IMG/VR virus record: IMGVR_UViG_3300032323_001205
Coordinates: 26,919 to 90,918 of that record
Strand: one strand, 5' to 3'
Source: a virus
Lineage: Duplodnaviria; Heunggongvirae; Uroviricota; Caudoviricetes
Length of the DNA: 64,000 bases
Shown here: piece by piece, positions 2,840 to 63,863 of the stretch
Layout of the letters: every line of letters begins with the position of its first letter
Numbering within the stretch: position 1 is the stretch's first letter
Made by a program: the position numbers and the translations under genes
Notes under the pieces: model-generated
Told to the model about the DNA's origin: nothing
Database searches by the model: none
Seen by the model: only the letters and a program-made list of their open reading frames with translations

Positions 2840-3172
2840 TTAGTATGGGTTAAAACTTGAACCGCACCCGCATGTAGTCTGTGCGTTTGGATTATTGATT
2901 TTGAATCGTGCTCCGGTCAAGTCTTCTACATAGTCAATTTCCGCACTTTGTAAATATTGAGCCGACATACTGTCAATTAGCACAATTGTCGATCCGGCTG
3001 GGATTTCCCAGTCATCTTCGTTTTTTTCATCATCAAAGGTAAACCCGTATTCCATACCGGAACACCCGCCCCCTTGGACAAAAACTCTTACTTTTGTATT
3101 TGGTGAGCTGCCCTCATCTGCTAATAATACTGCTATTCTTGCAGCCGCTGATTCAGTGATATTTAAATTCAT
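2840..3172 (-). CDS. A-type Fe-S cluster carrier (IscA/ErpA/HesB family)
   Basis: 110 aa. It has the conserved Cys triad context ([11 protein letters not shown] ... CGCGSSF C-terminal signature) of IscA/ErpA. Confidence 0.85.
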
Positions 3173-19980: not shown

Positions 19981-22143
19981 TTAAACACCTTTTGAAGAAT
20001 CAATCAAATTAATATACTCGGCAACATACATGCCGTGTGCGCTGTGTTTGCTGATGCTCTTAATCAACGGGTAACGTTGAAAAATTGCTTCAACCTCTTT
20101 GTTGTATTTGTCAATCAATGTAGCAGGGTCAACTGTTGTTGCTGTTACTACTTTGTACTGACGACACAACCATTCCAAACTCATTCTAACCTTATGGTCA
20201 CTTTCTTTCACATCCTTGAATGTGTTGAACAATGTCAAGTAAGGGCTGTGAGGATTTGTCACATGCTTAGTAGCATTATACTGATAAATCTCTTTCCAGT
20301 CAATACTTTGTTTGACCAAACCCATCACATCATTTTGACCCAACTTAGACAATTTCTCAGTCACAAATGTATCCAGATTGATCCAGTTCTTTTGTGTCTT
20401 GACCCAATCCAAATCACTTTTACGAACACCGTAAATTTCATTAGTGAAAATGTAACTATCACGCAAGTGTTGTTCCAAACTCTTGATATTTTCAACAGTA
20501 CCAAGGTTCTTGTAACCACTTAGTGGCAAGTAGTAATACGTTTCAGTAGCATCAAAACTGTTTGCTTTGCCACCATCACGCCATACCATATCAGCACGAT
20601 TGCGCCAACCACGACTACGACCTTCTTCCAATCGCATGATAGTAACATTCGCACCCATGCCGCCCTTACGATCCTTCTCAAGCAATTCACTTGCTTTGGC
20701 GATGCGATTAGTGGGAGGCATCATCAATTCAGCCAAGAAAGCAACCTTCTCAACCATCTTAGATTTATCAGCAGGCTCAATCACATACACATTTGATGTG
20801 TGTGTATCTGTCTTGATATTCTTCCAGTGATGTTTAGCACGTTCCAACGCACCAACCTTAGTGTCGTTGAACACAAAGTATGTTTCGTTACCTACACGGA
20901 TATCCCATTCTTCAAACAACACCTCAGTGTTATTTACAGTCTTGCGAGACTTAGTTGGCTTGTTATTAGAACAAGCCGCATAACTATTGGTCTTAGTAAA
21001 ACTACGAATTACAATGTTATACTTGCTAGCCAAGTCCTTAGTATCAAACTTGAATGTTTTGAATGCGTTCCAACGATTGGTACCTGGATCATACAATTCA
21101 AACTTAGTATCAGCCGCATACTTAATCACCGCACCCTTGAACAAGGTACCTTCGTCATAACGCTTTGCCAAGTAGATAGCACGTTCCCACAAGTTGTCAA
21201 TCTTATCTGCCTCTTGTGCCACGTGAATTGCCAATTGACTATTCAGCGCCATCAATTTGTTTTTGATAGCTTCGATTGTTTGTGGAATATAACTCAGACC
21301 TTCACGGCTTGCTTGAAAGTCAAGTTCACCGATCTTGAATTCCATCACAAGACCGCAACCCAACAAGCCATGCATACCACCAAGCACTTTGTCAGCATTA
21401 GGGATGTCAATAGGATACTTGATATTACCCATGATAGCATAACTGCTACGGGCATAACTATCGTTCGAATAGTGAACACCGGGGATGATGTTTTCTTCTT
21501 TATAATCGGGATCCTTGAATGTAAAATCAGCATTACCTGAAATTACAGGACGCAGTTTGAAATACTCATACACATAGCGAGCCTCGTCACGGAACTTGCC
21601 AAAGTCATACCGATCTGCTACTGCAAAGCGAACCTCAACACCGTTAGGGTCTGTAGTTTCTTCATCCATCATCAATGCGATAGATGGAACGCCTTGCTCA
21701 TTAATGAAGGCAGAGTAGATTCCCTTCTTACCGTTCTGTACCGCGGTAACCGTAAAATTGTCTGTATAAGAGAAGGGTGACTTTGAACCAAGACCAAGCG
21801 CACCGATAAATTCATTGCTTGCGGTCTTAGTGGATTCGAAATATGTAGTGTAGATATTAGTGACTTGGTCATGGCTCAGACCAGTGCCATAGTCACGAAT
21901 CGAAAAATAGGGTTCGATACTGTTAGGCAAGTGAACATCGAAGGGTGTATTTTGTTTGCCTGCCGCAACATGGCTGTCCACAGCATTGCAAGAAAGTTCA
22001 CGGATGATAGCACGAACCTTGTTCGCATACAGACCGGAACTTAGAATGCTAAAAGCCTTAGCACTATTGCGAATACGAAATTCACCAACGTCACTTACGT
22101 TGGAGATGATTGCTTCGTTTTGTGGTGCGTGATTGATAATCAT
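19981..22143 (-). CDS. rIIA: rIIA protein (GHKL-type ATPase N-terminal domain)
   Basis: 720 aa (T4 rIIA is 725). N-terminus aligns with T4 rIIA: KAFSILSSGLYANKVRAIIRELSCNAVDSH (N box), IRDYGTGL (G1), FIGALGLGSKSPFSYTDNF (G2). Confidence 0.9.
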   Translation of the reverse strand: MIINHAPQNEAIISNVSDVGEFRIRNSAKAFSILSSGLYANKVRAIIRELSCNAVDSHVAAGKQNTPFDVHLPNSIEPYFSIRDYGTGLSHDQVTNIYTTYFESTKTASNEFIGALGLGSKSPFSYTDNFTVTAVQNGKKGIYSAFINEQGVPSIALMMDEETTDPNGVEVRFAVADRYDFGKFRDEARYVYEYFKLRPVISGNADFTFKDPDYKEENIIPGVHYSNDSYARSSYAIMGNIKYPIDIPNADKVLGGMHGLLGCGLVMEFKIGELDFQASREGLSYIPQTIEAIKNKLMALNSQLAIHVAQEADKIDNLWERAIYLAKRYDEGTLFKGAVIKYAADTKFELYDPGTNRWNAFKTFKFDTKDLASKYNIVIRSFTKTNSYAACSNNKPTKSRKTVNNTEVLFEEWDIRVGNETYFVFNDTKVGALERAKHHWKNIKTDTHTSNVYVIEPADKSKMVEKVAFLAELMMPPTNRIAKASELLEKDRKGGMGANVTIMRLEEGRSRGWRNRADMVWRDGGKANSFDATETYYYLPLSGYKNLGTVENIKSLEQHLRDSYIFTNEIYGVRKSDLDWVKTQKNWINLDTFVTEKLSKLGQNDVMGLVKQSIDWKEIYQYNATKHVTNPHSPYLTLFNTFKDVKESDHKVRMSLEWLCRQYKVVTATTVDPATLIDKYNKEVEAIFQRYPLIKSISKHSAHGMYVAEYINLIDSSKGV

Positions 22144-23022: not shown

Positions 23023-23613
23023 TTATAGTCGTTTATCAATGATTTTGTCAATCAAGCCATACTCTAGTGCTTGCTGTGCTGACATAAAATTATCACGTTC
23101 CATATCATTGGTTAATTGTTCAAACGTTTTCCCGGCACTATTATGCTTAACATAAATTTCAGTAAGATTCTTTTTCATAGCAAGAATTTCTTCTACTTGA
23201 ATCAACATATCAGTTGCCTGACCTCGGGCACCGCCACTTGGCTGGTGAATCATGTGTCGTGCGTTTGGCAGCATAAAACGTTTACTAGTAGCACCTGCTT
23301 GAGCAAGCAAACTACCCATGCTACAGGCTTGACCCATTACAATTGTATTAATGTCGGGCTTGATAAACTGCATAGTGTCATAGATTGCCATACCAGCAGT
23401 AACACTACCACCGGGGCTATTGATATACATACTGATATCTTTTCCACTGTCCTCACTCTCTAGGAATAGTAGTTGTGCAACAATCAAATTTGCCATTTGG
23501 TCATGTACTTCTCCCTCAAGCAAAATGACCCGGTCACGTAATAACCGACTATAAATATCATAACTCCGTTCACCCTTACTTGTGTGTTCGATGACGATTG
23601 GGACTAGACTCAT
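23023..23613 (-). CDS. clpP: ATP-dependent Clp protease proteolytic subunit ClpP (canonical cellular type)
   Basis: 196 aa. Catalytic-triad context [10 protein letters not shown] (Ser), MIHQPSGG (His), plus the [19 protein letters not shown] box. Confidence 0.9.
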
Positions 23614-23695: not shown

Positions 23696-24799
23696 ATGAG
23701 ATACAACGAATTTGCAATAACTTTGGCTGAACGTGCTGCCCAACCAATAGCCGGTAAAGTTGATATTCAACCCCAATCTGTGACTAAGGGCCAAGTCGAA
23801 CAGGTGCTCCGTAAGAATGGTTATGAGGATTTGAAACCAAACGGAAACAAAATTAACGTATTGGTTCAAATTCCAGCTGGACAAAAGAAAAATGAGTTCC
23901 GTGCCGCTATTCTCAATGAAATTCTAGCGGTCTTAAAACAACAAATGCCAGAAGCTGACCCAGAATATAGTGCTGATCCAGGTATCAGTAGTTTGGGCGG
24001 CGTTGTATTCAGTAATAGCCCGGTAACAGTTGTGGTTAAAGACACTGGCAAACAAGGTGATAATAGTGCTGGTGTTGCTAACGAATTAGAATTGGCTAGT
24101 TTGTTACAGTCATTGATTCAGAAATATGGTTCAGCCAATGTTACATTTGTTGATCCGCGCGGTAAGAAAATGACTATTCGTAATTGTACAAACGTTGAAG
24201 TTGCTGGTCGTGACACAAGTGACCGCAAGAAAGCAGACGTTGTACTAACCAGTGGTCGTGGTTCGTTGCCAATCAGTATTAAGAAACTTGATGCTGACAT
24301 GTGGGAAAGTGCTGATAACTTGTTTGGTGAACGTGCCCGTGCTGTTTTAGATAAACTAATTAAAAACGGTGTTGTAGAATTGAATCAGATTGGTGAACGC
24401 AAAATGAAAACAGGTACTGTTCCTGTATATGCACTAAGCAAAGAGATTGTTATGGAACCAACTGAATCAGAGGCGTTAAGTGCTGTATTTGGCAATGACT
24501 TGAACCCTAAGGGAGGAGTCGTTGTTCAAACGTTTAAGCCTGAGCATTTCAAGCAAGTTGATAATAACGTAACAGTCGAATGTCACGCAGTTATTACTAA
24601 TGCCGCAGAGATTCCAGAAAGTCATATGATGGTTTGGTTACTACGCAATGACAGTACACGCAATGGTGGCTCATTAGGTATTGCTGGTATTCGCCCACTG
24701 GGTGTCACATTAACACGCGGTATTGGTAAAAAGGGTAACAAGGATGTTATTCTTGTTGACCAATTTGGTAATGTTGTCAATAATCCTAATCTTGGCTAA
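23696..24799 (+). CDS. Predicted capsid-targeted internal protein (CTS-like N-terminus MRYNEFAITLAE)
   Basis: 367 aa. N-terminus matches the MR-x-NEF-I/V-x-E family shared with the 51347-57046 genes. No catalytic motif recognised. A possible TTGCGA-N18-TATAAT promoter lies at 23634-23663. Confidence 0.5.
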   Translation: MRYNEFAITLAERAAQPIAGKVDIQPQSVTKGQVEQVLRKNGYEDLKPNGNKINVLVQIPAGQKKNEFRAAILNEILAVLKQQMPEADPEYSADPGISSLGGVVFSNSPVTVVVKDTGKQGDNSAGVANELELASLLQSLIQKYGSANVTFVDPRGKKMTIRNCTNVEVAGRDTSDRKKADVVLTSGRGSLPISIKKLDADMWESADNLFGERARAVLDKLIKNGVVELNQIGERKMKTGTVPVYALSKEIVMEPTESEALSAVFGNDLNPKGGVVVQTFKPEHFKQVDNNVTVECHAVITNAAEIPESHMMVWLLRNDSTRNGGSLGIAGIRPLGVTLTRGIGKKGNKDVILVDQFGNVVNNPNLG

Positions 24800-27303: not shown

Positions 27304-27522
27304 TTAAAAGTTTTTCTTTGGAAGACTTTGGTCACGCAAATATTTTTGCCATCTACGTTTAGCCTGGCTTTTTGCCACCTTACGCCTTACCGTCGGTTTA
27401 ATAAACTCTTGCCGGTCACGGACTTCCTGAAGCAAGCCTACGTCATTGATTAATTTCTTAAACTTGCGTAGTGCTTTCTCAGTGTTACCGTCTACAACAA
27501 TTATTTTTCTTCCTCGTATCAT
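27304..27522 (-). CDS. rpsU: 30S ribosomal protein S21
   Basis: 72 aa. [32 protein letters not shown] aligns with E. coli S21 [32 protein letters not shown]. Confidence 0.85.
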
Positions 27523-28718
27523 AGTAAAGTTTTGGGCTGTAATATTTGAGCTTGATTAATATTTATCTTTTTGATATTATTTTCTCTATATTTCTTGGTA
27601 TGATACATGTGCGGCATAAGCACTTTCTCAATTTCAGTATGCAATCCTCGTGCTCCAGTCTTTAACTTCATGGTATTTTCAGCTAACTGTTCAATTGCAT
27701 CTTCTGTAAATTCTAAGTCGATTCCATCCAAGCTTAACAAGTATTTGTACTGGTCAATATAATTATTTTTTACTCCAGTCAATACTTCAATCATTTCTTC
27801 TTTAGACAAATTAGAAACACTAACTGTTGTAGTAAAACGACCGATAAACTCAGGAATCATACCAAACTTAGTTAGGTCATCAGGGGTAACATTCGTTAAT
27901 CCTATTTCTTTGCGATTGTCTTTGATTTCAGCGCCAAAACCAATACTAGTACCGTGTTCTCTGTTATTAATTATTTCTTTGAGTCCAACGAATGCGCCGC
28001 CGCCAATAAACAATATGTTTTTTGTGTTTATTTCTAGCATGTCTCCACCGGGATGCTTTCGCCCACCGCTAGCAGGTATACGGCATACAGTTCCTTCAAC
28101 TAGCTTAAGTAGTGCTTGCTGAACGCCCTCACCGGACACATCCCGTGTTATGCTAGCACTCTCACTTTTACGTGCAATCTTGTCAATTTCGTCAACAAAA
28201 ACAATTCCACGTTCTGCTAATTTCGGGTCTCCGCCGGCAGCATTAACTAGCATACTAATCATAGATTCAACATCGTCACCAACATATCCTGCTTCAGTCA
28301 AGCTTGTAGCATCGGCCACTACAAAAGGCACGTTGAGATATTTTGCTACTGTTTTTGCTAATAGTGTTTTACCTGAACCTGTAGGACCAATCAACAACAC
28401 GTTACCTTTAGAGATTTCCAAGTCTTTTGGCGGTTTATTGATACGCTTATAGTGATTAGCAATTGCAACACTTAGCACCATTTTTGCATTGTCTTGGCCT
28501 ATGATATGATTATCTAAATACTCTTTGATAGACTCGGGGTCATATACTATTCCGTCTCCTTTGTTTTCAATTTCAGAAACATCGTCTACAATTAGTTGGT
28601 TACATAATTCTATGCAAGCACTGCATATAGCTACATTCTCACTTACAATTAATTTTTTTACTACGTCTTTGTGGTTACCACAAAAGGAGCAATGATTTAG
28701 TTTTGTATCATTTGACAT
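27519..28718 (-). CDS. clpX: ATP-dependent Clp protease ATP-binding subunit ClpX
   Basis: 399 aa. N-terminal C4 zinc finger ([30 protein letters not shown]), Walker [17 protein letters not shown], Walker [11 protein letters not shown], and a GF loop. Confidence 0.9.
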
Positions 28719-49828: not shown

Positions 49829-50254
49829 TTAACTTACCTCAGTACGACCATCGCCTAAATCTCTAGTCCTAACATTTCGCATGTCGCTACTTACTCTTTT
49901 TTCCGGATCAGCCATTTGTTGTTCAAAGGTTTCTAGAACAGTCGCTCTGCACAAATTAGTCCACCAGCGGTCTACTATATCATTATCTGTATCAGTGTCT
50001 TTCATCTTATACCCTGCACGAATAAGATTCAACACAAACTTATCATTGAAATCAAGTTCTACTGAACCGCTATTGATATCATTAGGGTCTATATCCATTC
50101 TAAGAATGTTCACATAAGGTTCCCCTGCCGCAGTAGCTTTTTCTTTTTCTGTAAGTTCAGGTGCAACTTTCTTTTCTTTAGTCTTGCGCGGTTTCTTTTC
50201 TTTCTGTACTACAGGTTCAGGTTTCTTAAATAAATTCTTTAACTTGTCAAACAT
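49829..50254 (-). CDS. Hypothetical protein with Lys-rich N-terminus
   Basis: 141 aa. Confidence 0.45.
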   Translation of the reverse strand: MFDKLKNLFKKPEPVVQKEKKPRKTKEKKVAPELTEKEKATAAGEPYVNILRMDIDPNDINSGSVELDFNDKFVLNLIRAGYKMKDTDTDNDIVDRWWTNLCRATVLETFEQQMADPEKRVSSDMRNVRTRDLGDGRTEVS

Positions 50255-51270
50255 TTGTATCTTTCGTATAGTTTAAAGCTGGCAAGATTCTTTGCCTTCG
50301 ATTCGCACATCATATCAAAGTTCTCACAGAATGTCAATGCCCAATCGTTTACTGCTTCATTCCAATAGTAATCACTATGTGCCCGAAGCTTCTGTTTACT
50401 GTACCCCGCTTCAATCAAAGTTGCCTGGTCGGGTAATTGATTGCAGTCGTGTCCGGTAAGTACGTCCTCCCGAGAAACACTGTAGTGCATAGCAGGGCGA
50501 ACACCGCGCCAACTATCAATAACCTTTTTAACAAGATCATCATTACAGTCAATATAGGTTCCTTCACGTACCCAATTATGGTGAATGTCCATGACCGTAG
50601 GTACGAGGTCAGATAATGATAAGCAGTCAGTAAGTCCATGTGTATATTCCTCATTCTCTAGTGTTAGTGTGTTTCTGGCTTCGGGGCTGAGTCTTCCGTA
50701 GACTTCTCTGATTCCGTCGGGACCTTTTCGTCCTGAGATGTGGACGTTGGTTTTGAAGTCCTGAAACTGTTTGCCATAACCCATCCATCGAACCATGTCT
50801 GCATGATACTCGAACTCCTCTATACTCTTATTTACTACTTCTTCACGGTCACTCGCTAAAACAACGAATTGGTCAGGGTGAAAACTTAGACGAACATTAT
50901 TGGCCCGTGCAGTTTCACCGATTGGAGCAAACCATCGTTCTAAACTGTTTTGTACATCAGTTGAATGCCAAAAGTCTTTGTACTCATCCATAGTGTAGAA
51001 ACTAAGCATGTCGCTGGTAAGACGAACCATACGCAGTCCTGGCTCTAGTGTAGCAACACGCTTAACTAGAGCATGAGTATTCATAATGTTGCGTTTAGCA
51101 ACATCCATAATCTTTTCTTCTACAACATTACGCTTATTGCGCTTTGCCCAAGCTTGTGTAGTGCCACCGGTATTAAGACCCTCGGCTGAGACAATCTCAC
51201 CTTTTTTGTTGATTTCCACCCATTTACACGCAAAACCGATACGTTTAGTAGTAATGTCAAAAGAGTGCAT
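50239..51270 (-). CDS. UV DNA damage endonuclease (UvdE/UvsE family)
   Basis: 343 aa. Collinear motifs with B. subtilis UvsE: RLSFHPDQFVVLAS versus RTSFHPNQFTLFTS; TLENEE versus TLENDD; VMDIHHNWV versus VFDFHHFYA; AHSDYY versus SHADYV. Confidence 0.75.
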   Translation of the reverse strand: MHSFDITTKRIGFACKWVEINKKGEIVSAEGLNTGGTTQAWAKRNKRNVVEEKIMDVAKRNIMNTHALVKRVATLEPGLRMVRLTSDMLSFYTMDEYKDFWHSTDVQNSLERWFAPIGETARANNVRLSFHPDQFVVLASDREEVVNKSIEEFEYHADMVRWMGYGKQFQDFKTNVHISGRKGPDGIREVYGRLSPEARNTLTLENEEYTHGLTDCLSLSDLVPTVMDIHHNWVREGTYIDCNDDLVKKVIDSWRGVRPAMHYSVSREDVLTGHDCNQLPDQATLIEAGYSKQKLRAHSDYYWNEAVNDWALTFCENFDMMCESKAKNLASFKLYERYKCLTS

Positions 51271-51346: not shown

Positions 51347-51715
51347 ATGAAAGTGAATGAAATCATTAATGAAGATTGGCAAAAAGTCAATAAAAAAGAT
51401 AAAACTGATGGTATGAGCCGTAAAGCCGTCAAAGCATACCGTAGAGAGAATCCGGGTAGTAAACTAAAGACTGCGGTAACTACTAAGCCTAGTAAGTTAA
51501 AAAAGGGTAGTAAGGCTGCAAAACGCCGTAAATCATTCTGTGCTAGAATGAGCGGTATGAAGAAGGCACACGCAAGTGCCAAGACCAAACGAGATCCGGA
51601 TAGCCCAATCAATAAGGCATTACGCCGTTGGAACTGCGAATCAATCGAACAACTACAAGAATTAGTTGTGTTAGCTGAACAACTGGTAGCTAAACACAAG
51701 AAGGAAGTATTATGA
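51347..51715 (+). CDS. Small highly basic predicted internal protein (CTS-like N-terminus MKVNEIINE)
   Basis: 122 aa, about 30 percent K/R, analogous to T4 IPI-III. First gene of the ATGA-coupled plus-strand operon. Confidence 0.55.
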   Translation: MKVNEIINEDWQKVNKKDKTDGMSRKAVKAYRRENPGSKLKTAVTTKPSKLKKGSKAAKRRKSFCARMSGMKKAHASAKTKRDPDSPINKALRRWNCESIEQLQELVVLAEQLVAKHKKEVL

Positions 51716-53229
51716 ACTTTAAAGAATTAATGGAAGGTGTCGAACCATCAATGCCGGGAGCCCCAGAAGGCATTCAAATTATGACACCTCAGCAATTCGT
51801 TGCTAAAGCTGGCGACATGCCCGGTGAAAAAGAAGTTGATGAAGGTGAAGTTATTCCTATAGGTAAAAAACATAAGGGCGGTTTAGAAGATACACATGAT
51901 TGTCCTAAGTGCGGAGGTGACTTACAAGGTGGCAAGTATATGGGACATCAAGTAAAAGTCTGTATGCCATGTAAACAAGTTTATCTACCACCCAACTCCG
52001 GTATTGACCAAAAAGGTAATCCAATACAGAATGAAAGTGAAGAACACTTAGCAAGAATTCGTAGACTATCTGGTTTAGATGAAGCTACCAAACTACCAGC
52101 ACAAAGCCGTGAGTTTGGTGGTGACGAGTTCCAAGACTACATGAATCGTATCAAAGGAACTGATGATATTGATAAGAAGACTGGTCAAGTTAAGTTAGAC
52201 AAAAAGGGCAATGAGAAGTATGTCTCTGGTAAAACAAAATCAGACAAGTACAAGATGCCCTATATCCATCGTTCAAGTATCATTGAATACTTAGGTCCAG
52301 ATGGTAAGACTTATGATGAAGATAAGATTAAGCAATCATTATCACAGCGTCCAAAATCATTACTAAAGCAAAATGAAAAGATGAAGCACTCAAACGGAGA
52401 GTTTGAACAGTTCTTTAACGTTGGCTTTGCCGCACTGACTGGTATCGCAGTAGACGAACAAACTGATAATCTAATCATTGTCAATACATGTCCGGGTGCT
52501 GGTTCATGTAAAGTAGATTGTTTCGCTATGAAAGGTGGCAAAGTTCAGTTCAAAGCCGCATGGCAAAGTGATGGAAGAATACTAACATACTTATTGAATG
52601 ATCCAGATGGTTTCTTCAATCAGTTAAGTGCAGAGATTAGTAAAGAAGAAGCAGCAGGTAAAAAAGGCGACAAGAAATTCCCTAATGGTTGGCAAACAAC
52701 TGTTCGCTGGCATGATGCTGGTGACTTCTTTAGTCCAGAATATTTAGACATGGCATTGAAGATGGCTGCAAAGCATCCTGATGTTAAGTTCTATGCTTAC
52801 ACAAAGATGGCAGGTGCCGCACTTGCACAGAAACCACCTAACTTCATTATCAACTGGAGTGAAGGTGCTAATACGGGACAAGAGAAACAAGTTAAAGCTA
52901 AAGACGCTAACTTAGACACAACCAAGAACAGTCGTATTGTTCCAGATGAAATGTTCCAAGATTTGTTAGTTAAGGATGAAAAGAAAAACTTAGTTAAGGG
53001 GGCAAGTGGCCAATGGCAAGTTCAACCTGACAAGTTACCTGAACTAAAACAACGTCTTGCTAAAGAATATGGACTAAGTGCTAATAGTATTCTATCTTAT
53101 GATGAATATATGGCAAAGCGCAAGAGTATTCCTGCAGGTATGAAGTACAATGTTATCGTTGCTCCGGGCGAAGGTGATATCAGTGCTAATGACCCTAACA
53201 TCATATCAACATTGTTACTAAGACACTAA
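51712..53229 (+). CDS. Predicted internal protein with zinc-ribbon (N-terminus MNFKELME)
   Basis: 505 aa. CPKCGG...CMPCKQ zinc-ribbon. ATGA overlap at both ends. Confidence 0.5.
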   Translation: MNFKELMEGVEPSMPGAPEGIQIMTPQQFVAKAGDMPGEKEVDEGEVIPIGKKHKGGLEDTHDCPKCGGDLQGGKYMGHQVKVCMPCKQVYLPPNSGIDQKGNPIQNESEEHLARIRRLSGLDEATKLPAQSREFGGDEFQDYMNRIKGTDDIDKKTGQVKLDKKGNEKYVSGKTKSDKYKMPYIHRSSIIEYLGPDGKTYDEDKIKQSLSQRPKSLLKQNEKMKHSNGEFEQFFNVGFAALTGIAVDEQTDNLIIVNTCPGAGSCKVDCFAMKGGKVQFKAAWQSDGRILTYLLNDPDGFFNQLSAEISKEEAAGKKGDKKFPNGWQTTVRWHDAGDFFSPEYLDMALKMAAKHPDVKFYAYTKMAGAALAQKPPNFIINWSEGANTGQEKQVKAKDANLDTTKNSRIVPDEMFQDLLVKDEKKNLVKGASGQWQVQPDKLPELKQRLAKEYGLSANSILSYDEYMAKRKSIPAGMKYNVIVAPGEGDISANDPNIISTLLLRH

Positions 53230-53230
53230 A

Positions 53231-53785
53231 ATGCGTGATATCATTCAGTTACTTGAGGATAAGTCAAAGCCTCAAGATATAGAAATCATTCAGCTTAACT
53301 TTGAGCCAAGTGAAGTAAGTCCGGTTATATCAAAAGATACATTGGACTTACACTATGGCAAGTTAGCGCATGGTTATGCTGAACGATATAACAACAAAGA
53401 AGGTGACAGAGAATTTAATTATGCAGGAGCATTCTTACATAACACATTGTTCCCTCAGTTCCGTGAAGTAAGAAACAACAATAAACCAAATGGTCCTATG
53501 ATGGGCTTTATCAACAAACACTATGGATCATACGATAATATGAAGTCAGAGTTTGAAGTTGAAGCAATGAAGATTCAAGGTAGTGGTTGGATATACTTAG
53601 CGACTGATGGTAGGATTAAAACAATACCAAATCATCAAGTACGCAATGACATATTGTTATTAGTTGATTGGTGGGAACATGCTTTTATATTAGACTATGG
53701 TAGTGACAAGAAAAAGTATTTGAAAGAACAGTGGAAGATTATTAATTGGAATGTAATTAATACACGTTGGGGTAAGAGTCTATGA
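53231..53785 (+). CDS. Fe/Mn superoxide dismutase-like protein (N-terminus MRDIIQLLED)
   Basis: 184 aa. SOD-like N-terminal LDLHYGKLAHGY (compare HYGKHH) and C-terminal DWWEHAFILDYG (compare DxWEHAYY). One conserved His of the HH pair is missing. Confidence 0.5.
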   Translation: MRDIIQLLEDKSKPQDIEIIQLNFEPSEVSPVISKDTLDLHYGKLAHGYAERYNNKEGDREFNYAGAFLHNTLFPQFREVRNNNKPNGPMMGFINKHYGSYDNMKSEFEVEAMKIQGSGWIYLATDGRIKTIPNHQVRNDILLLVDWWEHAFILDYGSDKKKYLKEQWKIINWNVINTRWGKSL

Positions 53786-54648
53786 GAGCAAATGAATTTA
53801 TAAACGAAACACAAGAACTTGACGAAATAGAACGCCTGAGTAAAAGCGGCTACGAGGGCGGCAAGTACGCCTTGTATGACAAACAGATTGGTAAGCAACT
53901 AAAGAAACTCCCCGGTGGTAGTGGATTACTTTACTCTACTAGTGAAGGTAGATTCGGTGGCACTGATATCAAACTCTGGGATCCAAACGGTGCAGATTAC
54001 ATTGCTCAAAAAGAAAGAGGTGTTCAACCCAAACCAGTTCGTGGCCGAGGAGAGTCACGCTTCGTGTACGACCGTAGACTTTGGGATTGGCAAAGAGCAC
54101 AACGTGATTTAAATGCTAATTTAAATGCTCCGGGGCAATTGATAGGCAAATTATCAGTTAGTACTGTCTACGGATTCCCGCTTAAAGGTGCAGTACAAGT
54201 TGATACTATCACAGTAGATGAAGACTATCGCGGAGTGGGCCTGGCCAAAGCATTGTATGGAATTGTACTAACTATTATGAAACGTCCATTACTTGCTGGA
54301 AGTAGTCAAACACCAGGTGGTCGCAAGAACTGGGTAAGTCTTGCTGGTATCCCCGGAGTTGAAATGAAGGGCTACATTAGTTTTGATGAAGACGATTTAG
54401 ACACTAAACGCAGTCCATACAGTATGACTACACCAGCAAAGGCTAACAAGAATATTGATACTATCATGGGTGAATTAGGTGGACAACACATTGGTCGTGG
54501 ACGATACGGTGATGAATACTTTGCATTTGATGTTAAACCAAATACAACAGGTACAGAATTAGAAGCATACGTTGATACGAAACTAAGCAAAGTATACGGC
54601 GGATACGATTCATCTTCTGGCTTATATGCGGTGTGGACGGGGCAATAA
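53782..54648 (+). CDS. Predicted internal protein with GNAT-like motif (N-terminus MRANEFINE)
   Basis: 288 aa. VDEDYRGVGLAKALYGIVL fits GNAT motif A (R-x-x-G-x-G/A). Confidence 0.5.
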   Translation: MRANEFINETQELDEIERLSKSGYEGGKYALYDKQIGKQLKKLPGGSGLLYSTSEGRFGGTDIKLWDPNGADYIAQKERGVQPKPVRGRGESRFVYDRRLWDWQRAQRDLNANLNAPGQLIGKLSVSTVYGFPLKGAVQVDTITVDEDYRGVGLAKALYGIVLTIMKRPLLAGSSQTPGGRKNWVSLAGIPGVEMKGYISFDEDDLDTKRSPYSMTTPAKANKNIDTIMGELGGQHIGRGRYGDEYFAFDVKPNTTGTELEAYVDTKLSKVYGGYDSSSGLYAVWTGQ

Positions 54649-55202
54649 TGAGAGTGCATGAGTTTATAACAGAAGTCAAAGTATCTGTTAAGGATCAAAT
54701 CATTAATACTGTCCGCAAGAACGGCGGAAATCCCAATGAATACTTTGTTCGCTTTACTGATATTGACAAATTAGGCTTTAGTGCTAAACAACAATTTGGT
54801 CGTAGTTTAGATGTTGACCACCCAGATTATTATCCAGACTATATTGGTGCGGGTAAAGGTAATCCTGCATTGTGGTTCTATCCATTAAAAACTTATATAA
54901 ATGACAATGACTTATATGCTATAGAAAAACCTTATGTTTGGTTAGTTAAATTAAAACCTAATGCATGGTTACAACAGGTTGACAGAAAAACTAAAACTAA
55001 ACAAGAGGCACCTCAGGGTAAAGAACGTGTGGGTATGATGAAGAATGTTAGTCCTTTTCCGGCTGCAATATTCTTTAAGCCGGGGTTTGATGTGGTGGGT
55101 AAATACTATGACTATGGTAGTCAACATAAACGTCACGGAGAAGTTAAAGGTCCTTCACAAGGTAAGCCAACATTCTTTGACAAAGTTAGAGGTCACGCAT
55201 GA
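54648..55202 (+). CDS. Predicted internal protein (N-terminus MRVHEFITE)
   Basis: Start taken at the ATG overlapping the upstream stop (TAATG). 184 aa from that start. Confidence 0.5.
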   Translation: MRVHEFITEVKVSVKDQIINTVRKNGGNPNEYFVRFTDIDKLGFSAKQQFGRSLDVDHPDYYPDYIGAGKGNPALWFYPLKTYINDNDLYAIEKPYVWLVKLKPNAWLQQVDRKTKTKQEAPQGKERVGMMKNVSPFPAAIFFKPGFDVVGKYYDYGSQHKRHGEVKGPSQGKPTFFDKVRGHA

Positions 55203-57046
55203 GAGCCAATGAATTCGTTACTGAAGTATTTCAACCAGGTAAAACAAACTGGAAGTGGTCTCGCCTAGGCGCTACCATAGCCTCTGCATATTTTAAAGTA
55301 GGTGATAGAGAATATCTTTGGCAAGCATTTACAGGTAGTAATCGTAAGAAGTGGGAAATACAATTTCGTTTAGTAAGAAATCCTGAAGTAGATCCAGATA
55401 ATTTAGACTTGTACGGTAAAACTGGTACGGGCAATTCAGCACAAGTACTAAGCACTGCTGTTGATATCACCCGCGCATTCATCAAAGAATATGGTATTGA
55501 TAGAGTAGAAGAAATTACATTTAACGCAAAAGAAGATAGTCGTATTGGATTGTACGCTAAAATGATTCAACGATTGTTACCTAATTGGGATTTATATCAG
55601 AAATATACTAAAGACAACGGTATGGAATATCATTTAACCGATCGCAGAGCATATGATAAACCTGAAAATAAACTAAGTGAGGAAGCCAAAGCTAGTAAAT
55701 ACAAAGGCTTGGTTATGAAGTATGCTTTCAATCAAAGTGCATTGATACTCAAAGCATTTGAACAAGGTAATCCTATAGCGTATGTTAAGTTTGTCAAAGA
55801 AAACAAAGAACTATACCCTCAGGACCTTTGGGTGAATGATGACTATCGCAATAGAGGTATCGCTAAAGCAATGTACGATTATCTAAAGGGTGAAGGCTAC
55901 ATTATTAACAGAAGCCATGACCAAACTAAAGCTGGTTCAGGCTTCTGGGATAAGCATCGTGGTGAAGATGAGTATGTTTGGGAAGAACAGAAGATTACAC
56001 TTTCAGGTAATCAACCTGCTAAAGCATGGATTGAGAAAGTCTATACTAAGTATCCACATACCATGCAGAACAATCATGTTATGGTTTGGGGTGAAGGCGA
56101 CGAACAACAGTTTGCAGTGTTTGAACTAACTCCAAGTTTCAGTAAGCGTGGTGCTGTAGAAGTTAAATGGTTCCAAGCATATCCATTGCGTCAAGGTGTC
56201 GGCAGTCGTGCTATGAAAGAACTTCAAGCATTGGCTAAAGAAGATGGCATTACACTTACATTGTTCCCGTGGGATAAAGGACAAGTTAGTCAAAGTAAAC
56301 TAACTAAGTTTTATAAGGGGCAAGGGTTCAAACCAACACAAAAGGGTGCTAAGACTATGTTCTGGGATCCTAGTGTGAATGAAGAAATTATTGACGAGAT
56401 GCCTCTACCTGCTGACTGGGATCCTCAACAGATGCGTCAGCAAAGCACTTCATTCAAGTCAAGACTTGCTTATGCTTTAGAAAGAGCAAAGAAGTTGGGC
56501 ACTGGATCTAGTCGTGTCGCTACTACAATTGAATATCAAGGCCGCCCTACAGTATTGAAAATTGCTAAAAATGCTAAAGGTCTAGCACAGAACAGTGTTG
56601 AGGCAGACATACTAAGTGACGGTTACGCTAGTCAAATGGGAATACTAATTCCTATTATTGACTATGATACACAGAATCGTGAACCTAGTTGGGTACATAC
56701 TGAGTTAGCACAGAAAGCAAACGAAAAGCAATTGTGTAGTTTAATGAAGTGCCAGTCACTTAATGATTTAATTAGAGCGGCACAAGCCCAACTCAATGAA
56801 TATGGTACTAGGTCTAGAACTATACTAAATGACATTATTGACAAGAACGAACATTTTGGTGTTAGTGAGCAGGATGCAGATACATTCTTAGAATATGTTA
56901 ACAGACTTGCAGAATTAAAAAGTTCATTTGACGTAGAATTGGCCGATTTTCATAGACCAGCCAATTGGGGATTATATCAAGGCAAACCAGTCATCATTGA
57001 TGTTGGATTTAATAGCAATGTATTAAATCAGTACTATAGTCGTTAA
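55199..57046 (+). CDS. Predicted internal protein with two GNAT-like acetyltransferase motifs (N-terminus MRANEFVTE)
   Basis: 615 aa. DDYRNRGIAKAMYDYL and LRQGVGSRAMKEL both match GNAT motif A. Confidence 0.5.
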   Translation: MRANEFVTEVFQPGKTNWKWSRLGATIASAYFKVGDREYLWQAFTGSNRKKWEIQFRLVRNPEVDPDNLDLYGKTGTGNSAQVLSTAVDITRAFIKEYGIDRVEEITFNAKEDSRIGLYAKMIQRLLPNWDLYQKYTKDNGMEYHLTDRRAYDKPENKLSEEAKASKYKGLVMKYAFNQSALILKAFEQGNPIAYVKFVKENKELYPQDLWVNDDYRNRGIAKAMYDYLKGEGYIINRSHDQTKAGSGFWDKHRGEDEYVWEEQKITLSGNQPAKAWIEKVYTKYPHTMQNNHVMVWGEGDEQQFAVFELTPSFSKRGAVEVKWFQAYPLRQGVGSRAMKELQALAKEDGITLTLFPWDKGQVSQSKLTKFYKGQGFKPTQKGAKTMFWDPSVNEEIIDEMPLPADWDPQQMRQQSTSFKSRLAYALERAKKLGTGSSRVATTIEYQGRPTVLKIAKNAKGLAQNSVEADILSDGYASQMGILIPIIDYDTQNREPSWVHTELAQKANEKQLCSLMKCQSLNDLIRAAQAQLNEYGTRSRTILNDIIDKNEHFGVSEQDADTFLEYVNRLAELKSSFDVELADFHRPANWGLYQGKPVIIDVGFNSNVLNQYYSR

Positions 57047-59440: not shown

Positions 59441-59664
59441 ATAATATGGGCATTCTTATCGTGCCATCTATGTTCAAATATTGTATCACCGGGACCAGTG
59501 ATTAGTCTAGTCAAGCGGTATCCATACTTTAACCAAATTCTTTTTCCTGATATATAACAAGTCTCAGGGAGCCAAGCAAATTTAAGTTCTGCTCCCAGAG
59601 ACCATCTATAAAATGAATCTTGTACTTGTGTCTGTGGCATCAGAACAAATCTACCTTTTCCCAT
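59422..59664 (-). CDS. Hypothetical protein
   Basis: 80 aa. Overlaps the metK 3' end by 25 nt. Confidence 0.35.
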   Translation of the reverse strand: MGKGRFVLMPQTQVQDSFYRWSLGAELKFAWLPETCYISGKRIWLKYGYRLTRLITGPGDTIFEHRWHDKNAHIIWSLKR

Positions 59665-60740
59665 GGCATGCCAGTCTTACCAAAATGACCATAATTAGTA
59701 GTTGCACTATAAATAGGTCTAAACAAATCAAATCTATCAATGATACCTTTGGGTGTCAAGTCAACATTGTTCTGAATCCATTTAGTTAACTCACGACTTT
59801 GTGGTCTGTGATCGGTTTCAACATAAAAACTCATTGGTTGTTCTAATCCAATAGCATAGCTAATCTGTACAGTGGCCCAATCTGCCCTACCACTTGCCAC
59901 AATATTCTTAGCCAAGTAGCGTGTCATATAAGCTGCTGATCGATCTACTTTAGTAGGATCTTTTCCACTGAAAGCACCGCCACCATGAGGACTATAACCA
60001 CCGTAGGTGTCCACAATAATTTTTCTTCCAGTGAGCCCAGTGTCGCCATCAGGACCACCAATAACGAAACGCCCAGTAGGATTAATATAAAATTCAGTAT
60101 CATTGTCTATAAATTTTGTTGGTAGTATTCCTCGAATTACTTCTTCTACGGCTCTACGTAGTGTTTCAATATTAATATCTTCAGCGTGTTGAGTAGAGCA
60201 CACAACTTTGGCAATACGTTTGGGAAAATTATTGTCATTGTATTCAAATGTTACTTGGCTCTTTGCATCAGGACCTAGCCATTCTACCGTTTTTGATTTA
60301 CGAACTTTGGTCAATTCTTCTACAATTCGATGACTCCAGTAAATTGCACTTGGCATATGTACATCTGTTTCATTACATGCGTAACCAAACATCAACCCCT
60401 GATCACCTGCACCAAATGTATCTGTTCCTAATGCAATATCTACACTCTGATTGTGCAACAGATTAGTAATCTCCGCTGTTCTCCAATCAAAACCTTTTTG
60501 TTCATACCCGACATTCTTGATAACTCGGCGTACAGCACTCTCAACATCCTCATCGTGTAATACACCTTTGTATTCACCTGCTACGATAACACGGTTAGTG
60601 GTAACCAGTGTTTCACATGCGCAACGTAACGATGAATTTTGTTGCGCCATAACTAAGTCCAATACTGAATCACTAATAGCATCTGCTATTTTATCAGGAT
60701 GACCTTCTGAAACACTCTCGCTTGTAAATAAATAACTCAT
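59640..60740 (-). CDS. metK: S-adenosylmethionine synthetase
   Basis: 366 aa. Near-collinear with E. coli MetK: FTSESVSEGHPDKIAD, GAGDQGLMFGYA, INPTGRFVIGGP, GLTGRKIIVDTYGG, HGGGAFSGKDPTKVDRSAAY. Confidence 0.95.
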   Translation of the reverse strand: MSYLFTSESVSEGHPDKIADAISDSVLDLVMAQQNSSLRCACETLVTTNRVIVAGEYKGVLHDEDVESAVRRVIKNVGYEQKGFDWRTAEITNLLHNQSVDIALGTDTFGAGDQGLMFGYACNETDVHMPSAIYWSHRIVEELTKVRKSKTVEWLGPDAKSQVTFEYNDNNFPKRIAKVVCSTQHAEDINIETLRRAVEEVIRGILPTKFIDNDTEFYINPTGRFVIGGPDGDTGLTGRKIIVDTYGGYSPHGGGAFSGKDPTKVDRSAAYMTRYLAKNIVASGRADWATVQISYAIGLEQPMSFYVETDHRPQSRELTKWIQNNVDLTPKGIIDRFDLFRPIYSATTNYGHFGKTGMPWEKVDLF

Positions 60741-60755
60741 TAATTTCCTTTTAAA

Positions 60756-61604
60756 TTAGGTACCCCACTCATTTTTAAAGAGTGGTACTTGTAGCCTATC
60801 GCTATAACGATATCCACGTTTCATTGATGCCATTGCAACATTTCTAGCATTCATACTATAAACACTTTCAACGCCACCGCATGGCATTAAGTACACAGGA
60901 CCTCTAAAGCCACCGGCCCGATATTCTTTAACTGCTTGGTCTGCTTCTAATACATCTTCTTCTGTAGCAACAACAAACTTAAGATATGCAAAGCCAACAC
61001 TTTCATATTGACGAATAATATCTGGTCTAATTGCGTCTTCCCAATCTTCACCACTAATACTAAGTTTAGGACTTACACTAAAGGTTAATGCGTTCTTTTC
61101 TCGGTGCATTTTCCATTTAGATAGATAGTCTTTAAACTCCATATTCAATTCTTGTGTACCATTAGTTTCAAAAGTAATTTCTTTTAATGAACTCATTTTA
61201 GAGTTTGAAAGTAAATCAGGATACGCTCTTTGCCATCCAAGTAGAGGTTCACCACCTGTGATAACCAAGTGCTCATCTACCCAACGATTGTGAGGAAGTA
61301 TATCCATAATACTGTCAACAATAGAATCGGTGGTGATAACAGGACTAAGATGTTTGAAACGAGGGTCCCAAGATGCATAACTATCACAACCAGTGGAAAC
61401 TAGTGGTAGTTTCTTGTAATCATCATAGTAATGAACTCTTGCGGCAATGTCTTCTACTTCCTTGCTCAGTTGACCTTTAGGCATGCCGAAACCCGCACAT
61501 GTAAAGTTACAACCAAATGTTCTAAGAAAGACTGAGGGTACACCCATGTATCTACCCTCACCTTGAATACTGTAGAATAATTCTGAAATTTTAAGTTGAC
61601 TCAT
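60756..61604 (-). CDS. QueE-like radical SAM enzyme (7-carboxy-7-deazaguanine synthase family) with atypical Cys spacing
   Basis: 282 aa. QueE hallmark N-terminus ELFYSIQGEGRYMGVPSVFLRTFGCNFTC, GGEP box (ITGGEPLLGW). The third cluster Cys is displaced about 38 residues (STGCDSYASWD). Confidence 0.65.
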   Translation of the reverse strand: MSQLKISELFYSIQGEGRYMGVPSVFLRTFGCNFTCAGFGMPKGQLSKEVEDIAARVHYYDDYKKLPLVSTGCDSYASWDPRFKHLSPVITTDSIVDSIMDILPHNRWVDEHLVITGGEPLLGWQRAYPDLLSNSKMSSLKEITFETNGTQELNMEFKDYLSKWKMHREKNALTFSVSPKLSISGEDWEDAIRPDIIRQYESVGFAYLKFVVATEEDVLEADQAVKEYRAGGFRGPVYLMPCGGVESVYSMNARNVAMASMKRGYRYSDRLQVPLFKNEWGT

Positions 61605-62679
61605 AATTTTTTATACTGTGTAAATTTCCCAAGATAATTCTAGGGCTGTTAAAGATTGGATCTTGTAATAAATCCCGCAATTCTTTCTTTTCTGATTCCG
61701 ACATTTCAAAGCCTGTGTGAAATACAAAGTCAGACAAGTGACCCCATTGTACTACTAAATTAAAGTAAATACTAGTCAAATGGCTATACTCAAGTTGCCA
61801 TTTTGCAAAATCTACTATCTCTTTATAGTTGTTGCGCTGTACCGTGAAGTTGGTTTGGAACTGTTTTAAATTTTTAAATGACCCATTCTTTATGATTTCA
61901 TTTAGAGATTCTAAGTTCCTTTTCACTTTATCCAGTGATCCGTTTTTTCGTACAACTGAATAAGTATCGTTGGTTGCAGCATCAATACTGATATTGAGGT
62001 GACTGATGTTATCCCATATATGGGTTATATCATTCAATCGTGCATCTGTCATTAAGATACCGTTAGTTAATAATTTCAATGAAAGATTTTGATTAGGATC
62101 TAAATTCTTAATATAGTTCCAATATATAGGGCTAGCAAACGCATCTCCACTACCTGTTATATTCAAGACCAACTGTTCACCTTTGTCTAGTAAGTACTGG
62201 ACCAACTCTTTAACTTTATTATGTACTCTACTTAACTGCGTGTTCTCATTTAACCCATATAGAATTAATTCATTTCTACAACTGGGGCATTGTAAGTTAC
62301 ACGACTGGTCATAACTGAAGTTTATAACTATAGGCTGACGAATCTTTTCTTGCGGTAATAAGACTAAAGGAACTATATATCCGGGTATACGCTTTCCATT
62401 AAGTATAGTATTGATGAATGGGCAATGATCATTACATTCTGTAAATTTTCCATTGTCCATGTCATTTACTAATGCAACTCTATTAACGTTATGTAAGATT
62501 TCTTCGGGAGTATCGGATAATACGTTCCCGAAGAATTTAGGTAGCCATGAAAAGCAACAAATAGATATGTCACCCGAAGGATGTATCTCAAAATACGTTG
62601 ATATACGATAACATCCGTAGTTTTTTAACTTAGACTCAGGGTATATGTATTGATCCGCGGACTTTATCACATATTGCAT
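61591..62679 (-). CDS. Radical SAM enzyme with N-terminal Cys-rich extension
   Basis: 362 aa. CNLQCPSC (CxxxCxxC) at about residue 127. It is preceded by ICCFSW / ECNDHCPF Cys clusters. Confidence 0.6.
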   Translation of the reverse strand: MQYVIKSADQYIYPESKLKNYGCYRISTYFEIHPSGDISICCFSWLPKFFGNVLSDTPEEILHNVNRVALVNDMDNGKFTECNDHCPFINTILNGKRIPGYIVPLVLLPQEKIRQPIVINFSYDQSCNLQCPSCRNELILYGLNENTQLSRVHNKVKELVQYLLDKGEQLVLNITGSGDAFASPIYWNYIKNLDPNQNLSLKLLTNGILMTDARLNDITHIWDNISHLNISIDAATNDTYSVVRKNGSLDKVKRNLESLNEIIKNGSFKNLKQFQTNFTVQRNNYKEIVDFAKWQLEYSHLTSIYFNLVVQWGHLSDFVFHTGFEMSESEKKELRDLLQDPIFNSPRIILGNLHSIKNYEST

Positions 62680-62693
62680 TAGTATGTCCTAGA

Positions 62694-63863
62694 TCAAATC
62701 ATTTCTGAAAGTTGTTTTGCCGTGTATGGTGCTAATGTCCAGCCTAAATGACCGTGTCCTGTATTATAATATACTTTACTATTTTTGTCACTCTGTTTGG
62801 TAATAGGCATCATATTAGGAGTCATTGGTCTGAGACATGCCCAACTACTATAATCATGTGTATTAATATCAGGAAAGTTAGTGTGAACCCATTTTAAAAG
62901 AGGTTTAATTCTATCTGATACTATGTCATAGTTTTCACCATTTAATTCAGCGGTCCCTGCAACACGAAATCTATTGCCTAAAGTTGATGTGACTATCTTA
63001 GCTTGGTCGTCTAGTAAACTTACTTTAGGTAAGTATTTAGGGTCAACGTTATTAATCGTAATAGAATATCCCTTTACCGGGTAAATATTCAAACTATCAC
63101 CGACACCGTTAGCTAGTTTCTCAGAACCCACACCAGCTGAAATGATCACCGCATCATAAGTGTTAGATAGATAATCTATTAATGATACGTCACAATTGTA
63201 GCAAAAAACAACGTTGTATTTCTTTTTTAAAATTTCAGCCAGTTCATAACAGAATTTGTGAATATCACCCACCCAATCACCAGGAGTCCAAGCACCTCCC
63301 ACTATACCTTTTATACTGCCTAATGCAGGATCCATGCTGAGAGTCTTCGTCGGAGATAGCAAATCCCATTCACAACCATTGGCATTATACAGGCCTTTTA
63401 CTTCAACTGCATTTTGAAAATAATTATCATCTTTATAAAAGTGTAAGATACCAGAATCGCTTCTGTCAAATTTAATGTTTTCTTCTTGACATATTTCATC
63501 GTACAACTTACGAGATTCCACACCCATTTGAATAGTGTTCGCGGTATTTCTACCATAATCACCCATAAGAGTGTGATATAAAAACTTTGCCATCCACTTG
63601 AACAATTTATAATCTAAACGTGGTCGGATTAATAACGGGGCATCTTTAGTGAACATCCACTTAATACCCTTTTCAACATTACTCCAAGTAGTCCATACTT
63701 CACTGTTACTGACACTGATCTGACCGCCATTAGCAAAACTGGTTCTCATAGCAGGATAGCGTTCCTGCTCATAAACAGTTACTTGATAACCCTTTTTAGC
63801 AAGGTAATATGCTGTCGTAATGCCTGTAATGCCGGCGCCAATCACTGCTATGTTTTTATTCAT
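62694..63863 (-). CDS. FAD-dependent oxidoreductase (DAO/glycine-oxidase-like)
   Basis: 389 aa. N-terminal dinucleotide fold KNIAVIGAGITGITTAYYLAKKGYQVTVYEQE. The reading frame stays open upstream to the window end, so a longer start cannot be excluded. Confidence 0.7.
   Translation of the reverse strand: MNKNIAVIGAGITGITTAYYLAKKGYQVTVYEQERYPAMRTSFANGGQISVSNSEVWTTWSNVEKGIKWMFTKDAPLLIRPRLDYKLFKWMAKFLYHTLMGDYGRNTANTIQMGVESRKLYDEICQEENIKFDRSDSGILHFYKDDNYFQNAVEVKGLYNANGCEWDLLSPTKTLSMDPALGSIKGIVGGAWTPGDWVGDIHKFCYELAEILKKKYNVVFCYNCDVSLIDYLSNTYDAVIISAGVGSEKLANGVGDSLNIYPVKGYSITINNVDPKYLPKVSLLDDQAKIVTSTLGNRFRVAGTAELNGENYDIVSDRIKPLLKWVHTNFPDINTHDYSSWACLRPMTPNMMPITKQSDKNSKVYYNTGHGHLGWTLAPYTAKQLSEMI

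Follow-up and report, generated by a model that had tools for sequence, protein, structure and literature searches.

The window analysed here is a 64,000-nucleotide stretch (IMG/VR record IMGVR_UViG_3300032323_001205, positions 26,919 to 90,918) of an uncultured freshwater jumbo phage of the T4 superfamily, and it corresponds to bases 28193-92192 of a 348,244-bp ENA metagenome scaffold (ERZ28594331 scaffold_7). At 51347-57046 it carries six coupled plus-strand genes, here called P1 to P6, with minus-strand genes on both sides, and our subject is the short peptide, the leader, with which their products begin. An earlier note on this sequence counted seven genes in the operon; six are found, and the N-terminus assigned to the seventh, MRYNEFAITLAE, is that of a separate open reading frame (ORF) at 23696-24799. 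The junctions, all of which had been described as overlapping, are in order ATGA, TAA-A-ATG, ATGA, TAATG and ATGA, the second having a 1-nt spacer and the other four the overlap described. By protein comparison the best cultured relatives are XacN1 (a jumbo phage of Xanthomonas), Xoo-sp13, and two phages of Alishewanella, Slicko01 and Slickus01; the operon has no megablast match among cultured phages, and there is no near-identical cultured phage.

P1 (51347-51715; 122 aa) begins with the leader MKVNEIINE (51347-51373), followed by a basic DUF6321 domain (Pfam, 47.5 bits) and a 25-aa tail. Its mature form has a predicted mass of 12.8 kDa and a predicted pI of 10.5, in agreement with the tiny, very basic protein reported previously. 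Elsewhere DUF6321 forms the C-terminal module of a cyanomyovirus protein, the 'T4-GC0119 structural protein', whose gene adjoins those for the terminase and in P-TIM68 lies between terS and terL. The P1 domain is 84% identical to that of P-TIM68, which begins exactly at ...NEDWQKVN, the end point of the P1 leader. P2 (51712-53229; 505 aa) has a start codon that overlaps the P1 stop codon as ATGA, a leader-like MNFKELME (its orthologues begin MKIKHLMEG), and a GP88 domain (PF17338; 88.6 bits in Pfam). The zinc ribbon previously ascribed to it is visible as a CxxC...CxxC motif (51901-51978) that scores 14.3 bits with Zn_ribbon_TFIIB, under the 22-bit Pfam cutoff.

P3 (53231-53785; 184 aa) is a superoxide dismutase (SOD)-like protein of the Fe/Mn type, as had been proposed, and a predicted enzyme: it matches Sod_Fe_C with 83 bits, above the cutoff, and Sod_Fe_N with 24 bits, under the cutoff of 27, and all four metal ligands (His, His, Asp, His) are conserved in an alignment with PDB 1ues. 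The NCBIfam equivalog cutoff is not reached (69 bits versus 348). The leader-like MRDIIQLLE of P3 lies in an N-terminal extension of about 14-17 residues relative to cellular SODs, with residue 18 of P3 aligning with SOD residue 4. At the place where the window has this leader-bearing gene, four related loci (L008 257-700, L009 3210-3653, L010 1547-1987 and L006 173-613) have a ferritin/Dps-like gene (Ferritin, 72 bits) that has no leader and stands just before the P6-type gene or, in L009, before the P4-type gene. Ferritin/Dps and SOD-like proteins are both oxidative-stress proteins.

P4 (53782-54648; 288 aa) has the strict leader MRANEFINE, which is MRASEFLNE or MRANEFLTE in its orthologues, and a marginal GNAT-like core (DYRGVGLAKALY; Acetyltransf_1, 21.4 bits against a cutoff of 20.7). 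P5 (54648-55202; 184 aa), for which the ENA gene call gives an ATG start, has the strict leader MRVHEFITE (MRAAEFITE in its homologue in the relative L029) and a body for which Pfam, PHROG and NCBIfam give no match.

P6 (55199-57046; 615 aa) is a multi-domain protein in which the strict leader MRANEFVTE is followed by a DUF6934-like N-domain, a GNAT domain (approximately residues 163-275), a second GNAT-like region (approximately 276-392) and a C-terminal domain (401-615; phrog_4301). The first GNAT domain is solid (40.3 bits against the cutoff of 20.7), so that of the three GNAT motif-A signatures claimed previously one is well supported and that of P4 is marginal; the third, LRQGVGSRAM (residues 330-339 of P6), is detected by no model and lacks Pfam support. 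Within P6 the peptides PENKLSEE (55661-55684) and VNEEIIDE (56375-56398, beginning with a GTG rather than an ATG codon) stand at domain junctions and look like fused leaders, and the modules of P6 are separate genes in relatives, each with its own leader (e.g. MKSIEFITEE followed by GNAT in L014). A protein kinase was considered for the C-domain on the basis of GxGxxxV, VLKIAK, DFHxxNWG and IIDxGF-like motifs seen by eye, and was rejected, there being no PDB sequence or profile match. Structure prediction, which had been recommended, yielded no fold for this domain, as the AlphaFold model is of low confidence (mean pLDDT 58, with the N-terminal half below 50) and too poor for a fold search. 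Searches of the bodies against the enzyme families that the earlier note named thus recovered GNAT (P6 and, marginally, P4) and SOD (P3), and no PolyVal domain, the class that includes the ADP-ribosyltransferase (ART) domain ART-PolyVal, is above threshold in the window proteins.

The leader peptide and its conservation

The strict motif M[KR]xxE[FILV][FILV]xE occurs four times in the six frames of the window, in each case at the start of an operon ORF (P1, P4, P5 and P6), and it was found in none of 200 shuffles. P2, P3 and the 23696 ORF have in common with it only the hydrophobic-x-Glu ending, a loose pattern that is common in the window (about one quarter of the listed ORFs of at least 60 aa), and the shared N-terminal peptide described previously for all of these genes is accordingly firm for four and loose for P2 and P3. 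The endings from P1 to P6 are INE, LME, LLE, INE, ITE and VTE, the last with a Val, and that of the 23696 ORF is LAE, compared with the gp21-type motif (L/I)-x-E. The 23696 ORF (23696-24799, plus strand; 367 aa), which lies divergent from clpP, combines the weaker leader-like N-terminus MRYNEFAITLAE with a phrog_12709 body. It had been listed as a further carrier, and its membership is doubtful because its homologues in the cultured T4-like phages Stenotrophomonas phage Moby and Vibrio phage VH7D have no leader-like N-terminus.

Across the clade the consensus is M-R-A-x-E-F-(I/V/L)-(T/N/K)-E, with a length of 8-9 residues. Orthologues of P6 found by homology of their bodies (13 loci with 10 distinct sequences) keep M-R-A-x-E-F-(I/V)-(T/I)-E, and their leader codons vary at the wobble position (AGA/CGA, GCA/GCC/GCT, GAA/GAG, TTC/TTT and ATA/ATT/ATC/GTT). 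Synonymous variation with fixed residues shows that selection acts on the peptide and not on the RNA, and a motif at the RNA level is rejected on account of this variation within the leader. Ahead of their start codons the operon genes have no conserved sequence in common. The leader is real and non-random, and it is the peptide that is under selection.

Leader-bearing proteins in related phages

The leader is modular over unrelated cargo. When IMG/VR was searched at the DNA level for degenerate codings of MRAxEFx[TNK]E there were at least 140 matches, nearly all at ORF starts, and nearly all have a stop codon a few codons 5' of the match, which identifies them as true N-termini. The bodies that follow form at least 23 single-linkage clusters, or at least 37 stricter clusters (complete ORFs), and among the matches listed the cargo includes GH19 lysozyme-like proteins, proteins with LysM and M23, SOD-like proteins, small GNATs, DUF6267 proteins and Gly-rich proteins, together with a family in which an HExxH motif is seen by eye and which has no Pfam match. 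Leader genes are also found in the tail and baseplate clusters of related contigs.

The C-domain of P6 provides a sample collected independently of the leader, in that 120 homologues were retrieved via this domain alone. The strict leader is present in 91 of the 120, and the 22 that have no leader-like start resemble truncated gene calls. Three architectures are represented (leader-Cdomain, leader-GNAT-Cdomain and leader-DUF6934-Cdomain), and nearly all of the homologues contain the junction (E)E[VI][LI]DE|MPLPADWD; the XacN1 homologue begins MKQVRLSQFLSE|APLPDDWD. Homologous domains occur elsewhere without the leader, for example DUF6321 inside the cyanophage structural proteins.

Several of the cargo families merit brief description. 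The commonest is a family of about 125 aa that is often encoded in tandem pairs or triplets about 360-400 bp apart (L026, L030, L041, L052, L084, L098, L106 and L120-L122); its members end in ...S/P-(I/V)-K-x-F-K-G-Y-(K/P)-(K/R), e.g. ...KPFKGYKK, and it has no Pfam match and none in cultured phages. In some GH19 proteins (L019 12174-12854, L020 11358-12035 and L059) the leader is followed directly by a twin-arginine-type signal peptide (MRANEFVNED-MSRRGFLGALGAGAMAASGVAQAK). Nine loci (L036, L062, L067, L068, L076, L077, L111, L118 and L138) encode a leader, a poly-Lys/Arg run and then a low-complexity region rich in Gly, Tyr and acidic residues (MRAxEFITERKKKRRK...YGGYG..GGDGGGGES), with varied C-terminal domains (HExxH-type, GH19 and others). 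A small Cys-rich leader protein (...CTKDCSGHxAGYNW...) with no known domain is encoded at L196 13010-13213 and also in L040 and L099.

Probable capsid targeting and its alternatives

The window itself contains no head genes, and the relation of the leader to the phage head has to be sought in relatives. Proteases of the gp21 family are encoded by XacN1 (ORF297, PF03420), PA5oct, Slicko01 and environmental phages of the L196 type, and one HMM matches the proteases of PA5oct, Slicko01, L196 and T4. The L196 clade is represented in extreme abundance, with contigs of 326-375 kb among its members, and its protease family has at least 8000 database members. At 80 protease loci the genes stand in a T4-like order of portal, small protein, acidic protein, protease, scaffold and major capsid protein (MCP), and the small protein between portal and protease, at the position of T4 gp67, begins MRSGEFLRE, MRSDEFLKE, MRDAEFLKE or MKAKELLLE; in the set of protease loci its family numbers 61, mostly with an M-x-hydrophobic-x-E-(F/L/M) start. 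The PA5oct homologue of this protein, gp150, starts with MKINDIITE (MKINDIITEGYY...) and is annotated as 'structural protein, ESI-MS/MS' (electrospray ionisation tandem mass spectrometry); a cut at MKINDIITE| is predicted to give the N-terminus GYYNPADDSSAIAHK. Head modules themselves contain leader genes: one directly follows the MCP gene in L196 (a 328-kb contig), others are upstream of the portal gene in L177, L248 and L291, and in several contigs the gene for a Gly-rich leader protein precedes that for the protease by about 7-8 kb.

Slicko01, a cultured phage with a complete genome, has a leader of a different sequence. Eight consecutive genes (L002 933-6603, equivalent to 85.9-91.6 kb of OQ508956) begin MKIDxLYESxLxE; the scaffold protein has the N-terminus MKEDLKQLFESVVLNEE, and head-module proteins and the protease have ..MITE|S and ..IITE|S near their N-termini. 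The leader co-varies by genome. The array includes an ADP-ribosyltransferase of the ART-PolyVal type (45 bits), the class to which the packaged and injected Alt of T4 belongs, and its last member is a homologue of the P6 C-domain. The array genes at 933, 3050, 3949 and 5382 form a paralogous family (..SP[IV][VL]FH[SA]T...FF[LM]STAR[ST][KR]..), with no Pfam match for the one at 3050, which was tested alone. XacN1 has a GH19 'chitinase' that was found in virions (PMC5852040) and is a homologue of a leader-bearing cargo family; an M23 virion protein of XacN1 was considered as further support and is not counted, being a baseplate-module protein that has no leader. As far as these comparisons reach, the leader is confined to phages with T4-type head modules.

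We think it probable, although by no means assured, that the leader is a capsid-targeting and cleavage propeptide of the T4 type that loads enzymes and a basic protein into the prohead. We infer that it would act by binding to the core, that cleavage, retention of the protein in the head and ejection would follow, and that there may be an effect on the host. The leader would bind the scaffolding core of the assembling prohead, such that the attached protein is enclosed as the shell forms, and a prohead serine protease of the gp21 type would then cut after the terminal Glu of the leader, at an (I/L/V)-x-E site. The same protease probably also cuts the internal junctions of P6 (..KLSE|E.. and ..IIDE|MPLP..), releasing separate domains. 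The mature proteins would stay in the DNA-filled head and presumably be ejected with the DNA into the next host, the predicted cargo being the very basic DUF6321 protein, the GP88-domain protein, the Fe/Mn-SOD-like protein, acetyltransferases of the GNAT type and two further proteins or domains of unknown fold. Anti-defence or host-takeover roles for this cargo, as suggested in the earlier note, are speculation.

Several observations weigh against this interpretation. The position equivalent to Tyr4 of the T4 internal protein IPIII is variable or absent in the leader, and the twin-arginine-like signal straight after the leader of some GH19 cargo is awkward for a protein inside the capsid. The gp21-family protease to which the earlier note looked is present in XacN1, PA5oct, Slicko01 and clade contigs and was not retrieved from this scaffold, the 348,244-bp contig being absent among the 120 matches listed for each of the XacN1 and L196 queries. 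In the 142 kb of PA5oct examined gp150 alone has the leader, and the example verified by mass spectrometry is thus a core protein and not an effector. The expression signals are no more helpful: the operon sits among early-type genes, on the strand opposite to its neighbours, and the window shows no excess of the T4-type late-promoter motif TATAAATA, from which the consensus used by this clade may differ. Of 139 leader genes 13 have ATAAATA in the 100 nt before the start, and a comparison with other intergenic regions (1/22 for leader genes, 77/590 for others) reveals no enrichment, so that the apparent signal for a T4-type late promoter disappeared and was set aside. The sequence GATAAATA, 62 nt upstream of the operon, is kept in three relatives, but the entire spacer is equally conserved.

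Some of these observations would suit a leader that has a purpose other than the capsid, either as a degron or docking tag for a phage ClpXP that limits the lifetime of early effectors, or as a handle for another partner or processing enzyme. The window encodes ClpP (272 bits) and a zinc-finger ClpX, with clpP divergently adjoining the 23696 ORF, and in XacN1 a Clp protease lies about 4.6 kb from ORF170; the early-type surroundings and the want of a recognisable late promoter are in keeping with such a tag, and GNATs, SODs and the DUF6267 family are equally plausible as ordinary cytoplasmic early proteins. However, the same motif is present on head-module proteins, including the virion-detected gp150 of PA5oct, and the leader ends in a gp21-type (I/L)-x-E that mirrors the T4 propeptides. 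To our knowledge the leader matches none of the ClpX N-motif classes, which counts against a ClpXP degron, and we regard a non-capsid tag as unlikely overall.

It is also rather improbable, in our estimation, that the proteins are packaged via the leader and serve as accessories of assembly or structure (core, scaffold, DNA-condensing proteins or virion-associated lysins) instead of being injected as effectors. The verified example, PA5oct gp150, is a core protein at the gp67 position, P1 has its basic DUF6321 module in common with a cyanophage structural protein, and the cell-wall enzymes among the cargo (GH19 and M23) are of a kind often seen in virion-associated lysins. On the other hand, the GNAT, SOD-like and GP88 bodies and the ART-PolyVal protein of Slicko01 are enzyme types with no obvious role in assembly, and the ART-PolyVal class is predicted or known to be injected (PMC5512222). 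Least plausible, and in our view very unlikely, is that the 27-nt gene start is a relic of cassette shuffling, a recombination joint whose peptide has no present function, or a translation-initiation element in the mRNA: it is precisely at the leader junctions that relatives differ by exchange, splitting or fusion of modules, and translational coupling constrains start regions, but synonymous sites within the leader are free to vary with the residues fixed, upstream sequence is unconserved between genes, the motif persists on distant contigs with different codons, and the internal junction copies keep hydrophobic-x-E, with VNEEIIDE beginning with GTG.

If the leader is indeed a capsid tag, the proteins carried into the cell by very abundant uncultured freshwater jumbo phages could be read directly from sequence, and there would be a catalogue of candidate effectors for the first minute of infection (acetyltransferases, SOD-like proteins, ADP-ribosyltransferases, cell-wall hydrolases and families with no known domain), as well as a short tag for loading foreign proteins into the capsids of non-model phages. 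A bolder proposal, which we put forward tentatively and regard as doubtful, is that the leader is the 'address label' of the whole packaged and injected proteome of this abundant uncultured freshwater jumbo clade, comprising dozens of cargo families of which most have no known domain, with P6-like cargo being polyproteins cut in the capsid at their internal junctions and some of the GH19 proteins with twin-arginine signals being re-exported to the periplasm by the host.

Genomic setting and comparison with known systems

Directly upstream of the operon and divergent from it is a UvdE-like gene (50239-51270, minus strand) for a UV-damage endonuclease of the UvdE family, and an epimerase gene lies downstream. 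The window also encodes an IscA-type Fe-S assembly protein (2840-3172), rIIA (19981-22143), ClpP (23023-23613; a CLP_protease match) and ClpX (27519-28718; a C4 zinc finger and an AAA_2 domain), all on the minus strand, as well as an ATP-dependent DNA ligase and an exonuclease-family protein (phrog_107), and there are no tRNA genes in its 64 kb. A minus-strand cluster at 59640-63863, continuing in L003 14442-21848, includes S-adenosylmethionine synthetase, a QueE-like radical-SAM protein, a second radical-SAM/SPASM protein, a DAO-family oxidoreductase, Bax1-I, a class II aldolase and PTPS (QueD-like), and suggests a pathway for 7-deazaguanine-type DNA or nucleotide modification. Relatives of the DNA ligase that are 82-92% identical are found on at least 309 IMG/VR contigs, and two of these contigs, with lengths of 524 kb and 364 kb, carry leader genes as well. 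Among the matches listed in IMG/VR for the protease, the ligase and the leader no contig is shared by the three lists, and the contigs are mostly fragments.

The closest parallel to the leader is the capsid-targeting sequence (CTS) of T4, which for the internal protein (IP) IPIII is MKTYQEFIAE (PMC8442874). The first ten residues of IPIII suffice for targeting, with residues 4 and 7 concerned with targeting and residues 8 and 10 with processing (PMC9026906). The F, I and E positions of the leader correspond to IPIII residues 7, 8 and 10, and in the 91 strict leaders they are F in 87, I, L or V in 90, and E in all 91. Other N-termini read from the T4 genome (NC_000866) are MAKINELLRE in gp24, MLKEQLIAE in gp22, MEGLIE in gp67 and MNEPQLLIE in gp21. 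The CTS and propeptides of IPI, IPII, IPIII, Alt, gp24, gp22, gp67 and gp68, which are cut by gp21, resemble the leader in being short N-terminal peptides on unrelated proteins, and the likeness to the T4 CTS that had been pointed out earlier is borne out by a common core E-(F/L)-(I/L)-x-E and an (I/L)-x-E end (compare MKTYQEFIAE and MAKINELLRE with MRANEFINE and MKVNEIINE). Further points of likeness are the portal-gp67-gp68-gp21-gp22-gp23 head module in leader phages, the small, very basic cargo protein and the ADP-ribosyltransferase cargo of the relative Slicko01. There are also clear differences, in that the leader has 9 residues rather than 10, it belongs to an uncultured jumbo phage with a genome of about 350 kb, the cargo consists mostly of large enzymes (GNATs, SOD-like and GP88 proteins) together with a protein of four domains that has leader-like junctions inside it, the number of cargo families is far greater, and targeting and cleavage are here predicted from sequence.

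The arrangement of the operon recalls the polymorphic IP loci of T-even phages, in which Repoila et al. in 1994 reportedly described different ORFs with a common CTS. These loci are also covered in PMC9026906 (sections 2.6 and 3.1). Both have adjacent unrelated genes with only an N-terminal targeting peptide in common, and both vary between related phages. The T-even loci encode small basic proteins, of which at least one, IPI, inhibits a restriction enzyme, whereas the present genes form a translationally coupled operon of predicted enzymes with a leader that is also found in the head and tail modules of related contigs.

The polyvalent proteins of phages and conjugative elements (Iyer et al. 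2017, PMC5512222) provide a further comparison, since they are predicted to be packaged and injected and to undergo processing by proteases; ART-PolyVal is a domain defined there in proteins predicted to be injected. P6 resembles them in having several unrelated domains, approximately four modules, in one polypeptide, and there is an ART-PolyVal domain in the Slicko01 array and a weak match to Kinase-PolyVal (E 0.005) in the related cargo L045. The window proteins differ in the absence of PolyVal domains noted above, and no embedded peptidase domain was detected, such that processing would rely on the prohead protease acting at the leader-like junctions.

In the phiKZ-like giant phages (SPN3US, phiKZ) a gp21-related protease (gp245 or gp175) cuts N-terminal propeptides from many proteins inside the head at x-E, and there are paralogues with conserved N-termini (PMC5694885). 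The likeness lies in head-internal proteins with propeptides removed by the protease, but these propeptides are 80-130 residues long and belong to another lineage, whereas the leader is T4-like in both length and sequence. The searchable literature deals with CTS-like tags in T4 and its close relatives and with the long propeptides of phiKZ-like phages, and this clade is not covered in it. The principle is already known, having been established for T4 and anticipated in reviews for T4 relatives; what appears to be new here is an unusually broad enzymatic cargo and, in P6, a cargo protein with a polyprotein-like architecture.

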